DNA of 64,000 bases from Treponemataceae bacterium (GTDB lineage Bacteria; Spirochaetota; Spirochaetia; Treponematales; Rectinemataceae), in assembly GCA_963678065.2 (NCBI GenBank), contig CAXXVZ010000005.1, forward strand, positions 1,120,001-1,184,000, read 5' to 3'. A program made the position numbers. Below are positions 15,001 to 39,000 of this stretch, one piece after another. Position 1 is the first letter of the stretch. Every line of letters begins with the position of its first letter.

Positions 15001-18000
15001 TGGCTCTGAAAATCGGCATCACCCAGGCCTTGCTTTCACACTATGAAACCGCCCGTCTGAGTATTCCCGTCGAGGTTGTCATTCAGATTTCCATTTCGTT
15101 GAACGTACACGCGGATGTGATATTGGGAATCGGAGCATCGGCACCGCTCGACGATGACTCGCCAAGCCGCAGAATTGTACAGCGGGCGAAACTGATCGAA
15201 CGTCTTCCCGCCTTCGACCAGAAAGCCCTGCTCAAAACCATCGACAATGCGTTGAAAGGCGCCGGCATCACAACGGAAGATCCAAAAGTCTCTCACTGAC
15301 TGATGCTTCTGCTCCCTGCCCTCGACGATGGCACCATCAAACACAGTCGCCCGACTGCGCCTAATTCTCGGTTGGCGGGGAGCGCCGTCCCAAGCCGTGC
15401 TTGGGAGAGCGCTCCCCCAAATCCGCTTTCGCGGACTTCGCCAACCTACGCATTAGACGCTATCGGGTCTGCCTTCCCCTTCGGCTCAATACTCGAAATT
15501 CACAAGTATGGAGTCAAGCATGCGGATGGTTGTCTTCCCATAGCCAAGGGGCTGCGCGACTACTGTCGCGATGCCCCGCGGCAGCTCTTCTCACCCCAGA
15601 TTCCCACGATTCCATAGCCACCGTGACGAAGGTACGGCATGCAGGAGCATATAAATAAAAACTCAACCAGTCAGTGTTTTTTCAAAATTTACACCAGTTA
15701 TTTTTTTCTTCTGAATAGCCTTTTTTAGTTTTTCACTTACATAAAGGCCAGACGTAATCTTCCAAAGACTGTGATGTGCAGGCTTATGGAAAACACTGAA
15801 TTTTTCAACCTTATCTATAGAAAAGCACGGTTTCATAATCCGATCGGTACCTCGGACATACATTGTTTTTTGCACATCGATAACATCAAGCATTTTTGAG
15901 AATCGTAAAATAAAGTATATGCGCTGTTCTCCCCCACCATTTATTTTTGCTCTTATCCAATTAATTCCTTCATTACCAGATAAGTTTTCTTCAATGACAA
16001 CCTTTAGCCTCTCAGAAAATAAGGGCCAAGCCAAACTATTCGGTAAATAGTCGATCCATAGTTCTTTGATTTCTGAAAGGTCAGAGGACCTAATAAGCCC
16101 ATCTCCCTCTTTCGTCAATTTCACCAATGAAAACTCAAATGGCATTTCAGAAACACCATCGATCTCTGAAATCAACTCATGTGCCAACCGAGTTCCTTCT
16201 GGTGCAAACGCACTTGCTACTGGCGTGGAATCTGCACCACCAAATAGATAGTAATTCATCATTGCCACCAAGCTTTTCTTAACATCCCAGGGTTTTCTAT
16301 AACTGGAGTCTTTACATATTGGTTGAACAATTCAAGGAACTTTGCCTGACTAGTTCCGGCGCCAACCGCTGCATCTTGCATACCCTGTTGAACAAAATCA
16401 TGATAGGCATCTGGATGTCGGCCTAAATGAGGCATCAACTCTTTGTTCCATGCTTCATCCAGCTTCAGTCCAAATTTCTCTGCAATATCTTCCATTTGTT
16501 GGGTAAACTTAGAGTTTTTATTAGTTGCAAAGTGATGAAGTTGTTCTTCGTAAATTAAGCAATAATCATTCAATAAATTGGCAACATTATTTCCATATAG
16601 CAGTCTCAGTACAGAATCGCTAGCATTGTTCATCCCCTGCAGGAGAGAACCGACTGCTTTTGCTACATCTTCAATAACCTCCCTTCTTCCTTCTGCTCTT
16701 TCTGCTTTCTCAAATTCCTTGACCCTATTTTCAGAATCCCCACTCGAAGCACTCAATTTGCCATTATTATCAGATAAAATGTGCCCGCCATGGTGATCAT
16801 CATCTACTTCATGAGCTAGTCCCGAGGGATCTGTGAACGAGAGCGGATTGTTGCCACAGTAGACGAACCAGTTGCCCCCATCCCTGACCGGGTCCTCAGA
16901 GTAGAACCTCCCCGCCACACAATCATAGTACCGCGCATTGAAGTAGTACAGTCCCGTCGCGTCTCGCTCCTTCCCCGTGTACGACACATCCTGACTCCCG
17001 TCGTACCCGTTGTAGTTCGTCACCGTCGAGCCACCCCACACCGCATAGTCGATCTTCGCCTTCACCGTCCCCGCCGTGTCCGTGACTGCCCTCCGCGATC
17101 CCAGGTTGTCCTGCCACACGTACTCTAGCCGCTCCGTGTTCCCCACGTAGTCCTTCACGTACCGTCCGACTTCCATACCCCCAAGCCGCACGTTCACCTG
17201 CGCCGTCTTCCACGTGCTCCCCTCCATCCTCTCCTTCAGCAGTATCTCGTTCCCCTCGTACACGTACAGCGTCGTCGTCACCGCTCCCGTCGTCGACGTC
17301 TCATCTTTCCGATACCGCAGCCCGTCCGGGTAGTACCGATAGCTGTCCGTCTGCGTTCCACCTGCGTTCCTCGCCAGGTCTCCCATACCCTCCAGCCGCC
17401 CGTACACGTCCCACGTAAGGCTCGCGTACCGGTTCTGCACACCCGTCACCCACCCCCGACTCGCGTCGTCCGTCACGGCTTGCGAACTCGGATGCGTGAT
17501 GTTCCGTAGGAGCATGCTGTTCACTCCCGACACCGGCGCATAGCCATAGCTCGCCGGATCTGTCCCCGTCGACTGTGTCAGGTTCCCGATCGCGTCGTAG
17601 CCGTAGCTTGTTCCCCCTCCCGTCGACAGGCGGTTCATCCCGTCGTACCCGTAGCTCACCCCGTCCCGCCCCGTCACGTTCCCCATCCGATCGTACGTGT
17701 AGCTCCCGTCGCACAGGCTCCCCGGATTGTCCACCGAACTCATTCGCAGCCACGTGTCGTACCCGTACACCGCCGTTCCCCCCGACGTCCCGTACGATAC
17801 CGCCGTCCGTCCTCCCCAGAACGACAGTCCTGTCCGCCCTAGCAGGTTCGACGAACTGTCCGACACCGACAGCGTGTTCGTGTTCCCGCCATACCCTGTT
17901 CCGCCGAAGTACGGTGTCGCATAGTTCACGGCCTTCGCGTACCCACCAAACCCCGTCACCGTCACACTCGCCGGATTGTTCGCCAGGTCGTAGGTCCTCA

Positions 18001-36000: not shown

Positions 36001-39000
36001 GCGTCGACGAGGAGCCCGCAGCCCGCGACGCTCGTAGTGACAAGCGCGTACTGCCAGTATGGTCCGGCCACGGTGGCTGAGCAGCGAGGGGGTGAATCGA
36101 CGCCGAGCCAGACGGTGGCGTGGGAATACGGGGTGAACGGGATACCGGCCAAAGAGAGTCGGACCGTCCCGACTCAGGCGGGGTCGAAGACGGCGACGGT
36201 AGTGAGGACCTACGACCTGGCGAACAATCCGGCGAGTGTGACGGTGACGGGGTTTGGTGGGTACGCGAAGGCCGTGAACTATGCGACACCGTACTTCGGC
36301 GGAACAGGATATGGCGGGAACACGAACACGCTGTCGGTGTCGGACAGTTCGTCGAACCTGCTAGGGCGGACAGGACTGTCGTTCTGGGGAGGACGGACGG
36401 CGGTATCGTACGGGACGTCGGGGGGAACGGCGGTGTACGGGTACGACACGTGGCTGCGAATGAGTTCGGTGGACAATCCGGGGAGCCTGTGCGACGGGAG
36501 CTACACGTACGATCGGACGGGGAACGTGACGGGGCGGGACGGGGTGAGCTACGGGTACGACGGGATGAACCGCCTGTCGACGGGAGGGGGAACAAGCTAC
36601 GGCTACGACGCGATCGGGAACCTGACACAGTCGACGGGGACAGATCCGGCGAGCTATGGCTATGCGCCGGTGTCGGGAGTGAACAGCATGCTCCTACGGA
36701 ACATCACGCATCCGAGTTCGCAAGCCGTGACGGACGACGCGAGTCGGGGGTGGGTGACGGGTGTGCAGAACCGATACGCGAGCCTTACGTGGGACGTGTA
36801 CGGGCGGCTGGAGGGTATGGGAGACCTGGCGAGGAACGCAGGTGGAACGCAGACGGACAGCTATCGGTACTACCCGGACGGGCTGCGGTATCGGAAAGAT
36901 GAGACGTCGACGACGGGAGCGGTGACGACGACGCTGTACGTGTACGAGGGGAACGAGATACTGCTGAAGGAGAGGATGGAGGGGAGCACGTGGAAGACGG
37001 CGCAGGTGAACGTGCGGCTTGGGGGTATGGAAGTCGGACGGTACGTGAAGGACTACGTGGGGAACACGGAGCGGCTAGAGTACGTATGGCAGGACAACCT
37101 GGGATCGCGGAGGGCAGTCACGGACACGGCGGGGACGGTGAAGGCGAAGATCGACTATGCGGTGTGGGGTGGCTCGACGGTGACGAACTACAACGGGTAC
37201 GACGGGAGTCAGGATGTGTCGTACACGGGGAAGGAGCGAGACGCGACGGGACTGTACTACTTCAATGCGCGGTACTATGATTGTGTGGCGGGGAGGTTCT
37301 ACTCTGAGGACCCGGTCAGGGATGGGGGCAACTGGTTCGTCTACTGTGGCAACAATCCGCTCTCGGCCACGGATCCCACCGGATTACGAGAAGTTGAAGA
37401 GACAGTCGATAGTGGGGTCTATGAACAGAAGGATCGAAGAGAAGCACCGGAAAGAAATTCAGGGTCATCTTTATTTGGCAAGATAAAAAGCTATTTACCT
37501 GGAGACTATTGGGCATCGAAGGGGTATGACACATGGTCTTCGGGTGGAGGCTTTTGGAAAGGTCTAGGCTATTTTGGACTAGCCGCCTGTAATGATGCAA
37601 CATTTTTGATGTTAGGTCAGATAGGGGGTGTAGCACTAAACAAGCTAGGCGGACTATTTATAAAAAGTGCCGCTGGGGAGGGGGCAATAGAGCTGCCTAC
37701 TGCTCTTCAGGGAGGTGCGGCAACAACTGACGTTTATTTTGGGACAAGACATGGCCAACGTGTATACGCTGGAATCACCAATGATCTTGCACGTCGGCAA
37801 GGTGAACATGAAAGCCGATTTATCCTTGAGCGCATAACTCAATCACCGGTGACTAGAGGTGAAGCGAGGGCTATTGAGCAGTCTTTGATCAGCCAGAATC
37901 CGGGCTTCGAGAATGTAATAAATAGTATTAGCCCGAAGCATTCCTGGTATCAGCAAGCTGTTGATTGGGGTAGTGCTTGGCTGAAAGCCAATGGGTATTA
38001 ATATGAACTTGAGAATTTTGAAAGGTACTAATCGGTCACCTGCTATTGGCGACTGCTTCACTATGATGCCGCCTGATGGTCAGTTTTTATTTGGCCGGGT
38101 TATTGAAATAGATGCCAACCCACTCGGATTAGGTGGTGGTATTCTAATCTACATTTACAATGGGCGATCCGAATCAAAACAAGTGCTACCAGATATGACG
38201 GTAAGCAATCTTTTGTTGCCTCCGATTATCACCAATAAGCAGCCTTGGATAAAAGGCTATTTTGAATTCTTGGGAAACGTTTCTTTAGGCCCTAAAGACA
38301 GGCTCGCTGTTCATTGTTTCAAAGATTCCCGCGGGTGGTATTTTAATGAGAGAGGAACCCGTTTGCAGGTTAAAACTGAACCAGTTGGAGAATGGGGGCT
38401 ACATAGTTATCGCACGATTGATGACGCTATATCAAATGCCCTTGGTATTCCACAGTCGCAAGAAAAATGAGCCTAATGTATAGTTCAAGCTGACAACCCT
38501 ACGGGTTGCAGCTTAACTAGGTTATTAGGCTAATCGAAGAACGTTAGCCGCCTTAGCCTTGTGCTGGGACGGCTTTTGTGCATCCGAGGCAAGAAAAAAT
38601 CCGAGTTATGCTGCGAGCCTGTTTCAGGGCGCGAATGGCAAAAAGAGCTGCCGCGGAGCATCGCGTCTTCGACGCGCAGCCCCGTGGCTAGGGGAAGACA
38701 CCCATCTGAATGCTTGACTCCATGCTTATGAATTTCGAGTATCGAGCCGAAGGGGAAGGCAGACCCGATTGCGCCTAATGCGTAGGGTGGCGAAGTCCGC
38801 GGAAGCGGATTTGGGGGAGCGCCACTCCACGCGCAGCGTGAGGTGGCACGACCCGCCAACCGAGAATTAGGCGCAGTCGGGCGACTGTGTTTGATGGTGT
38901 TAAGGGGTTTTGATAGTTTCCGCTGTGACGTAGACCCCGCAGCGTGAGTCACGAGCGGAGAGACCCTCTGCATGGGGGAATATGTACAGCACGCTATTTA

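Follow-up and report, generated by a model that had tools for sequence, protein, structure and literature searches.

Analysis of a 64,000-nucleotide stretch of a spirochaete contig (the window) points to an apparently complete type II secretion (T2SS) operon linked to cargo genes. Following Sec-dependent passage by way of their predicted signal peptides, both adjoining Rhs proteins are probably exported by it through the outer membrane. Across the order, the same machine is combined with a giant, putatively exported protein, mostly an Rhs of one of several unrelated classes and sometimes an Ig-rich adhesin-like protein.

The secretion genes, their Rhs neighbours and the island

The layout described in an earlier note on this DNA, a T2SS cluster between two inverted Rhs genes (16259..38001), was recovered, and its claim that this is the genome's only such cluster held, as one secretin and one T2SSE-family ATPase scored over the cut-off genome-wide. 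All genes of the cluster are on the minus strand. The short A24-type prepilin peptidase (31737..32207; PF01478) has a sigma-70-like site immediately upstream. The secretin GspD (29546..31774) matched the N0, N and secretin Pfam families, and its top 10 matches among PDB sequences were all GspD. The GspE ATPase (28062..29549) carries Walker A, Walker B, the His box and two CxxC motifs, and its start is likely at 29549 (495 aa) rather than at 29933; the best NCBIfam models for this protein and for the platform protein GspF (26854..28062; PF00482) were GspE (493 bits) and GspF, respectively, both below the model's cut-off. The major pseudopilin GspG (26375..26830) passed the TIGR01710 cut-off of 88.85 with 131.8 bits. 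Two putative minor pseudopilins, one GspJ-like and one small and GspI/H-like (25716..26380, starts uncertain), were recognised by their class III-type leaders, with an N_methyl match of E 0.21; the small gene, at approximately 26194-26380, is an addition to the earlier gene map. The GspK-like minor pseudopilin (24697..25716; NF037980 E 6e-6, below cut-off) is full length in the alignment, with a conserved C-terminal segment, and a fourth minor pseudopilin of the H, I, J, K set was not found in the cluster. The GspL/PilN-like platform protein (23570..24700) had atlas features of 0.95-0.96 to GspL and PilN clusters, and two small membrane proteins of 162 and 169 aa (22599..23583), for which no family match was found, were assigned to the GspC and GspM positions by their location and a hydrophobic segment.

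The cluster includes a TPR lipoprotein (21893..22594, minus strand) with an invariant Cys19 and a transthyretin-like plus TPR fold. Structure modelling predicts that it binds the C-terminal helix of the secretin in a pilotin-like manner. The TPR-secretin model scored 0.75, compared to 0.00 for the best control, on a scale whose threshold 116 of 157 solved pairs and 2 of 215 mismatched ones attained. Runs of the model had no fewer than 74% of their contacts in agreement, and the partner pLDDT was at least 83.

The two Rhs genes of about 1,850 aa with different tips were found as claimed, inverted and with immunity genes that differ as well. Rhs1 (16259..21805, minus strand; 1,848 aa) consists of a signal-peptide-like start, a ZU5-like domain ending at HF|S (201-203), an Rhs core and an AHH nuclease tip, and is followed by an Imm11 immunity gene (15663..16271, minus strand; PF07791 E 3e-11). 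Its inverted paralogue Rhs2 (32383..38001, plus strand; 1,872 aa) has a tip with a weak GIY-YIG match (PF01541 E 0.02), followed by Imm26 (37991..38470, plus strand; PF15428 E 2e-12). The same order of variable tip and immunity gene applies to AHH with Imm11 and to the Rhs2 tip with Imm26, and a TNT tip occurs on the same cores in P0002 and P0005. Both proteins scored over the TIGR03696 cut-off and contain the PxxxxDPxG junction motif; a PAAR domain was not matched in the Pfam scan of either. The reported identity of 91% was reproduced (90.7% over 1,679 aligned residues), but as a mosaic rather than a uniform value, with 2,947 nt at 100% and N-terminal 100-aa blocks at 53-97%. Both also have the leader-like starts that had been read as signal peptides, judged here on a hydrophobicity scan and by eye rather than by SignalP, and a ZU5-like domain is present in Rhs2 as well as in Rhs1. 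The N-terminal ZU5 fold of Rhs1 was modelled with a pLDDT of 77.5 and matched the ZU5 domains of ankyrin and UNC5b at E 1e-4 to 1e-3 (best rmsd 5.1 over 190 columns), and the putative self-cleavage motif HF[ST] is conserved at the end of the domain.

In the mechanism that we propose, the Rhs would cross the inner barrier by Sec through its predicted signal peptide and would fold in the periplasm with the tip packed inside the barrel. The GspE/F/G pseudopilus would then push it through the secretin, with the TPR lipoprotein as predicted secretin pilotin. The ZU5-like domain and the DPxG site may self-cleave to release the toxin, from which the producer cell would be shielded by the immunity gene downstream.

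The locus lies on an island bordered by a tRNA gene (40444..40517, minus strand). The 42-bp att repeat was confirmed as exact copies at contig C5 positions 1117930, left of the window, and 1160444 (window 40444-40485), giving an island of 42,514 bp, in agreement with the size of about 42.5 kb given before. The repeat forms the 3' end of the tRNA, as expected of a tRNA-targeted genomic island, and the copy at 1117930 is the only second copy in the genome of any long stretch of this tRNA. Its CAT anticodon is shared by three tRNAs in the genome, and by its identity features it is probably a tRNA-Ile2 rather than the tRNA-Met named before. No integrase was seen beside either att end in ORF lists and blast searches, and the recombinases within the island are parts of the tip elements described below. 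A ParE-type toxin-antitoxin pair and an IS110 transposase remnant lie at 38994..40359 (minus strand), and the tRNA was the only Rfam match.

Linkage of T2SS genes and giant cargo across the order

The pairing in relatives was confirmed, as a cluster-TPR-2,135-aa Rhs order in one genome (G032) and a cluster-TPR-3,371-aa Rhs order in another (G005). The ATPase, previously counted in 8 of 68 family genomes, was matched in 9 of 68, and GspG in 7 of 68. The claim that the physical pairing recurs had rested on two of three loci and is now much more strongly supported: among the 150 of 315 matches listed, 15 of the 19 long frames for Rhs in genomes with gspG were no more than 20 kb from that gene, compared to an expectation of 0.31, with a gspG-to-Rhs-core spacing of 9.4-16.2 kb, and the other four were distant or on another contig. 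In the whole order, gspG was present in 92 of 401 genomes, own genome included. Rhs was carried by 57 of 91 gspG-positive genomes compared to 56 of 309 gspG-negative genomes, counts that include kin and are not independent, and the remaining 34 gspG-positive genomes had no Rhs match.

Among 28 full-span GTDB loci, a giant gene was found in 20 and none was in view in eight; 14 were flagged as Rhs-type, 13 of them firmly. In one genome with two clusters (L103 and L108), a 3,350-aa Rhs lies barely past the flank of each, and four of eight follow-up genomes without visible cargo had no Rhs core match whatsoever. The position of the cargo gene is taken by Rhs of several classes or by Ig-rich proteins of up to about 5,000 aa (range 1,700-5,000 aa), and most cargo proteins of either kind start with a hydrophobic leader. 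An N-terminal (secretion) domain common to all cargo was not found, the ZU5 profile matching 22 of 47 proteins tested. In a quick GspE tree, cargo classes were scattered and the window's ATPase fell in no supported clade. Another giant of this genome, a protein of 5,766 aa encoded away from the locus, was considered as rival cargo and rejected, since it is of FlgD-Ig/OmpA type and did not match the cargo set. These findings greatly strengthen the link of the T2SS to signal-peptide Rhs that had been proposed. However, a system dedicated to Rhs delivery is too narrow a description, because Ig-rich giants can take the cargo position and Rhs is missing from some clusters. Intact signal-peptide Rhs genes are in addition kept in some genomes that lack the motor or the secretin, as described below, which speaks against this reading. 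Export via the T2SS is the best reading of this link, and such export is putative.

Linkage can also arise from joint residence on islands. It is conceivable, but unlikely, that both modules merely collect on the same islands, with lysis, vesicles or some other path releasing the Rhs and other proteins being the substrates of the T2SS. IS elements and a toxin-antitoxin pair do accompany the locus on its island, long Rhs genes occur without a T2SS in four genomes (G082, G011, G040 and G724), and Rhs cores, many of them in short frames, are present in 56 gspG-negative genomes. Such hitch-hiking is argued against by the tight and repeated gspG-Rhs spacing in the 15 close cases among the 150 of 315 matches listed, by the cargo gene often coming after the TPR gene in the same orientation, with a four-gene block conserved between them and their relatives, and by the genome with two clusters having one Rhs next to each. 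In favour of export through the T2SS, the leader of this Rhs class was intact in two T2SS-positive genomes (G000 and G553) and decayed or missing in two T2SS-negative ones (G040 and G011).

We consider it improbable that the secretin and the TPR lipoprotein form the true exit pore with the pseudopilus motor optional, so that Rhs could pass a motor-less secretin. This reading draws on three genomes (G107, G386 and G616) in which the secretin is kept and neither GspG nor a GspE-type ATPase is present at the locus, which contains the TPR gene, three small genes, a short secretin, a lipoprotein and a 3,250-3,320-aa Rhs. The short secretins are intact (398-400 aa; 80-96% identical). In each, a leader of its own is joined to the portion that corresponds to residues from 367 on, and this portion includes the predicted TPR contact. 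Between G107 and G616 there were 167 silent and 80 residue-changing codon differences, a pattern that suggests selection on the short secretin. Nevertheless, the short form may be a stage of decay, most paired loci retain E, F and G together with the minor pilins, and in G082 (one contig, 99% complete), where two intact leader-bearing Rhs genes lie beside a TPR remnant, no secretin and no ATPase was matched.

A surface type IV-like pilus that shows the giant protein at its tip, like PilY1/PilC adhesins, instead of releasing it would suit the Ig-rich adhesin-like giants and the predicted TPR lipoprotein pilotin, a typical trait of type IVa pili, but is very improbable, as the major pilin passed the GspG cut-off, the secretin is nearest GspD structures, the single PF00437 match over the cut-off genome-wide indicates one assembly ATPase without a retraction ATPase, a PilT retraction ATPase with a PilA-type pilin was not found in this genome, the Rhs C-terminus is a variable toxin, and the K-like pilin retains its C-terminal segment. 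According to the abstract of PMC12918778, T2SS K proteins give the strand that PilY1 supplies in pili. Export of the Rhs proteins through the T2SS remains our preferred reading.

Recombinase-pair elements at the Rhs tips

The tip of Rhs1 belongs to a 6,506-bp element (10315..16820, minus strand) with the order AHH tip, Imm11, repeat, orf146, Rep and recombinase pair. Its genes, all on the minus strand, include an XerC/XerD-like recombinase pair (copy B, 10555..12587), a 579-aa replication-type ATPase (12633..14372; PF27228-like, with plasmid relatives annotated primase/toprim) and orf146 (14369..14809), which is kept across the element family. The element was missing in run X7, where the orphan tip B was fused to the core (joints 10314-16821 and 10326-16833). 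Tip B (9705..10346, minus strand) is a start-less TNT-family tip, 97.6% identical to the tip of the full-length Rhs P0002 and P0005; it was found joined to an Rhs core in other samples. An 89-aa predicted immunity protein (9439..9708, minus strand) was assigned to it by position.

A second element carries a tyrosine recombinase pair of 333 and 344 aa (copy A, 1794..3826, minus strand; PF00589), which has 98.8% DNA identity to copy B, as well as orf146 and a Rep-like gene split by an IS21 element (3872..8487, minus strand; istA/istB at 4307-6555, plus strand). Its start-less orphan tip A (1001..1585, minus strand) begins ENPxxxTDPTG and had no family match. The 174-aa protein encoded after it (495..1019, minus strand) is predicted to be its immunity protein from this position and a hydrophobic N-terminus, and matched no Pfam family. 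A conserved non-coding repeat of 260-340 nt, without a match in Rfam, follows each immunity gene (141..413, no strand assigned; other copies at 9010-9391, 15332-15590 and 38562-38899).

Toxin-tip exchange is usually credited to homologous recombination. The arrangement found here suggests that a 6.5-kb recombinase-pair element, newly described here, probably exchanges the tips of Rhs proteins where the DPxG motif joins them to the core, by means of its predicted recombinase activity. Tip diversity would then likely come from such small elements inserting at the core-tip junction and displacing the resident tip, a possible site-specific path for exchanging toxin tips. A phylum-wide recombinase search at E 1e-55 gave matches in 2 of 400 other genomes, a cut-off too strict for this count to map the spread of the element. 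No paper on these elements was found in the literature searched, mostly open-access main texts.

Comparison with known systems and significance

T2SS with a linked substrate gene are known as Klebsiella pul/pulA, E. coli etp/stcE and gsp/sslE and Pseudomonas hxc/lapA. The present locus shares with them a Gsp D-E-F-G-(I,J)-K-L-M core, of which I, J, K, L and M are putative here, a prepilin peptidase and a gene for predicted Sec-dependent cargo adjoining the operon. It differs in its cargo, a polymorphic toxin with an immunity gene or a 1,700-5,000-aa Ig-rich protein, in the predicted TPR-type pilotin and divergent platform genes, and in the truncated secretin-only form in three genomes. To our knowledge, such cargo would rank among the largest T2SS substrates known.

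The Rhs proteins resemble the signal-peptide and ZU5-RHS toxins of Zhang et al. 2012 (PMC3482391) in their predicted signal peptide, the putative ZU5 autopeptidase at the N-terminus, the RHS repeats, the variable AHH tip and the toxin-immunity order, and differ in having a secretin operon as neighbour. In the parts of that paper available, Table 1 gives no signature neighbourhood for the signal-peptide ('T2SS/Sec-dependent') class, the list of adjacent machines in section 41 is confined to T5SS, T6SS, T7SS, PVC and MuF, and a TcdB/TcaC-like route is proposed for ZU5 in section 8. A precedent for the proposed export is the Rhs-family antibacterial protein Bcn-A of Xanthomonas perforans, which is found in the supernatant and whose activity is lost in an xpsD mutant; in the text available this is a single locus of five ORFs, tested against the xpsD system, with no secretion operon described in it (PMC7259588). 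Like T6SS Rhs effectors and the orphan Rhs/CdiA tips of Poole et al. 2011 (PMC3150448, available text), the proteins have an Rhs core, a PxxxxDPxG junction and downstream orphan tip-immunity pairs. In contrast, the orphan tips here are almost without core homology and lie behind recombinase pairs, and the words 'integrase', 'primase' and 'recombinase' are absent from the available main text of that paper. Unlike for T6SS effectors, neither TssC nor a VgrG-family protein was matched in this genome. The statement that spirochaetes have no T6SS is consistent with this genome and is too broad for the group, since TssC was found in 2 of 121 genomes searched. T2SS-class filament systems in Spirochaetes, with Leptospira cited, were reported by Denise et al. 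2019 (PMC6668835), whose available text contains no Treponema and names no cargo, as opposed to the cargo pairing here. No paper linking a T2SS operon to Rhs in spirochaetes was found in the literature searched, mostly open-access main texts; Additional File 1 of Zhang et al. may list such loci.

Taken together, a tentative joint reading, somewhat short of even odds, is that spirochaetes of this order fight needle-free: 200-380-kDa Rhs barrels would leave via a private secretin, whose motor was shed in some lineages, and self-replicating recombinase elements would re-arm the toxin by placing another tip, with its immunity gene, at the DPxG codons. In this picture, elements of that family apparently also act on proteobacterial polymorphic toxins, CdiA among them. 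For related shell toxins, a 2026 paper describes delivery as remaining to be elucidated, and 'T2SS' and 'Spiroch' do not occur in its available text (PMC13018210). The locus is a candidate outer-membrane route for signal-peptide Rhs toxins in diderms without a T6SS, and it is a common one, given how many genomes of the order (92 of 401) carry gspG. The pairing is also present in the cultured gut spirochaete Breznakiella homolactica (locus L091), so the route is open to testing.

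The type II secretion operon and its giant neighbours

On the minus strand, the operon ran from the prepilin peptidase, secretin, ATPase, F and G genes through two small pilin-like genes and a K-like pilin to an L-like protein, two small membrane proteins and the TPR lipoprotein (21893-22594). Its secretin and T2SSE-family ATPase were the only ones over the cut-off in the genome, confirming the sole T2SS claimed in the earlier note. Rhs1 (16259-21805, minus strand) started 88 nt after the TPR gene, the gap holding a sigma-70-like site (10 of 12 positions), and Rhs2 (32383-38001, plus strand) was divergent from the prepilin peptidase gene. 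Both passed the Rhs core cut-off; the Rhs1 tip was AHH, paired with Imm11, and the Rhs2 tip, paired with Imm26, matched GIY-YIG weakly. At both N-termini, basic residues preceded a hydrophobic core and AWA, a sequence that reads as a predicted Sec leader. The structure model of residues 25-440 (pLDDT 77.5, pTM 0.46) resembled ZU5 domains, those in ankyrin and UNC5b, with NLRP1 and GAIN domains as weaker matches; the ZU5-like domain ended at HF|S, residues 201-203. Homologues P0021, P0026, P0034, P0039, P0040 and P0043, of the same Rhs class, had no leader and started exactly at the end of this domain.

GspG was matched in 91 of the 400 further genomes examined in the order, the Rhs core in 113 and both in 57, giving a co-occurrence odds ratio of 7.6, which is overstated because kin are not independent. 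Linkage of long Rhs frames (at least 1,500 aa) was counted from 150 of the 315 Rhs core matches. Among these listed matches, 29 such frames were found outside the source genome, 19 of them in gspG-positive genomes; 15 of the 19 were less than 20 kb from gspG (expected, 0.31), and the remaining four were on different contigs (three) or distant from gspG (one). In a GTDB scan of the best 80 of 109 gspG loci, 78 with a spirochaete label, full-flank loci carried an Rhs-type flag in 14 of 28 cases and any giant gene in 20 of 28, and loci with at least 4 kb on each side in 12 and 14 of 22, respectively; the flag of one locus (L163) came from N-terminal likeness alone, and several edge-cut genes were called Rhs-type by resemblance to complete SpvB-type Rhs. 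Of the eight full-flank loci with no visible cargo, L108 had a 3,349-aa Rhs approximately 7 kb beyond the peptidase gene, and no Rhs match was found in the genomes of four.

The cargo comprised ZU5-SpvB-FG-GAP Rhs of approximately 3,300 aa, DUF6531 Rhs of approximately 2,000 aa, Ig-Rhs and the ZU5 class of the window, as well as Ig-rich proteins that reached 4,977 aa and gave no RHS hit. Leader-bearing Ig/FN3-rich cargo of 4,926 and 4,977 aa (L056:4225-19005 and L059:4737-19670) occurred in genomes with no Rhs match. The T2SS is thus linked to a giant exported protein that need not be an Rhs. The proposal of a T2SS kept for Rhs is partly supported: 15 of 19 frames among the matches listed were linked, and Ig-rich giants also occupied the cargo slot.

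At many loci a conserved four-gene block (a membrane protein, an exported protein of approximately 340 aa and two lipoproteins) lay between the TPR gene and SpvB-type or other Rhs genes (L091:14358-17916; L128:13644-16781; L134; L146; L150; L153). It was absent from the window, and of its four genes, tested in L091, three had no Pfam family.

A predicted pilotin and the export reading

The lipobox cysteine of the TPR lipoprotein was invariant in the alignment, and the protein was modelled as a small beta domain with TPRs. Its co-fold with residues 367-742 of the secretin scored 0.75 (best of three controls, 0.00). Of solved pairs, 116 of 157 reached the mark, and of mismatched pairs 2 of 215, counts only roughly valid for the alignments used. 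Contact agreement between runs was at least 74%, with partner pLDDT of at least 83, and the best predicted contacts fell in the final helix of the secretin, where they involved a YY pair that most aligned sequences share. The matches listed by a PDB sequence search were all generic TPR proteins. TPR grooves often bind helices, so the co-fold supports, short of demonstration, a pilotin-like binding of this helix.

The Rhs toxins are probably exported by the neighbouring T2SS. The window's Rhs class was present in 4 of 401 genomes. GspG and an intact Rhs leader were both found in G553. Neither ATPase nor secretin was matched in G040, where the leader had polar residues at positions hydrophobic in homologue P0025, or in G011, where the frame started past the leader with a stop codon immediately upstream. 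Leader state and T2SS presence covaried in this small sample of four genomes. Counting against T2SS export, G082 carried, on one contig, two leader-bearing Rhs genes (approximately 3,250 aa each) next to a remnant of the TPR gene, with no secretin. Also counting against it are the loci of G107 (L074-L075), G386 (L181-L182) and G616 (L177-L178), which shared a conserved set of TPR lipoprotein, three genes, a 400-aa secretin from which the periplasmic N-terminal part is missing, a lipoprotein and a 3,250-3,320-aa ZU5-Rhs. No GspG, pseudopilin or GspE-type ATPase was found at these loci; G616 had a single partial PF00437 match approximately 1 Mb away. Silent changes were in excess in the short secretin, which argues that it is maintained.

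The earlier note's view that spirochaetes have no T6SS held for the source genome, where searches for the TssC and VgrG families gave 0 matches, and not generally, TssC occurring in 2 of 121 genomes searched. TssC-family sheath genes were located at G114:C92:28570-29472 and G087:C4:42378-43265, in T2SS-bearing genomes of one genus. A 5,766-aa FlgD-Ig repeat protein with a C-terminal OmpA domain was encoded at G000:C3:181938-199238 (L229), and a 1,360-aa protein with similar ends adjoined the G082 and G107 Rhs loci.

The island, the inverted repeat and the tip elements

The proposed att-bounded island was confirmed: the 3' 42 bp of a CAT-anticodon tRNA at 40444 were repeated exactly at contig position 1117930, enclosing 42,514 bp (GC 56%; genome, 59%). 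This tRNA (40444-40517), one of three CAT tRNAs in the genome, was called tRNA-Met by ARAGORN; from its identity features we take it to be probably tRNA-Ile2. No integrase was seen in ORF lists or by blast at either end, so the island now looks immobile by itself.

Rhs1 and Rhs2 formed a perfect inverted repeat of 2,947 nt (100%) around the operon (16817-19763 and 34440-37386). Since this region differed by up to 12% from the protein of a related strain, the identity suggests ongoing conversion or inversion, or assembler consensus. Inversion would exchange tips between the two N-termini. The same TNT tip occurred on an Rhs2-like body in P0002 and an Rhs1-like body in P0005, a pattern compatible with inversion, with conversion or with alternative assemblies.

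Downstream of Rhs1, outside the coordinates given in the earlier note, two element copies had the same make-up: orf146, a Rep-like ATPase, a pair of tyrosine recombinases and, together with its immunity gene, a start-less tip. The tandem elements spanned 141-16820 and contig positions 1118400-1120000, each terminating at a start-less Rhs tip, and other samples showed alternative joins of tip and core. A third orphan tip, left of the window (contig C5 1118859-1119941), measures 219 aa counted from the junction, is accompanied by a partner gene of 136 aa and looks amidase-like by a motif. An IS21-family element (4172-6605) split the Rep gene of copy A. The first codons of the orphan tips encoded PxxxxDPxG and no other core sequence, which would be too little for ordinary homologous exchange. 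The orphan TNT tip was 97.6% identical to the tips of two full-length Rhs proteins of a related strain. In contigs of X7, a run from another sample, the TNT tip was fused straight to the core and a complete unit of 6,506 bp was absent; this may be the state before insertion or the one after excision, by putative recombinase action. Among 30 metagenome loci with the Rep gene, 16 had a complete second recombinase and at least 250 nt beyond it, and in 13 of these a start-less tip or Rhs core end came next, often after a common GGGAGAGA|CC arm. Comparable recombinase pairs adjoined the T2SS clusters of L112 and L128. Plasmid relatives included an 11.3-kb Lonsdalea circle with nuclease, immunity, SymE, primase and xerC genes, and an Enterobacter unit inserted behind a haemagglutinin-repeat gene. 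This putative tip-swapping family of mobile elements extended to Leptospira, Ralstonia and enterobacterial plasmids.

Relation to known systems

T2SS operons adjoining their substrate genes are well known, and the arrangement here is comparable, with giant Rhs or Ig-rich proteins as the predicted cargo. A 2012 survey catalogued the signal-peptide and ZU5 classes of Rhs toxin, its accessible part giving no linked machine (PMC3482391), whereas here a T2SS operon adjoins them. In Xanthomonas, one Rhs lost its activity in a T2SS mutant (PMC7259588). A literature search, limited to main texts and largely to open journals, found nothing on the linkage across the order, a TPR protein as predicted pilotin, the loci with a secretin only or the tip elements. 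T2SS operons beside substrates and signal-peptide/ZU5 Rhs were thus already known, and these four features are apparently new.
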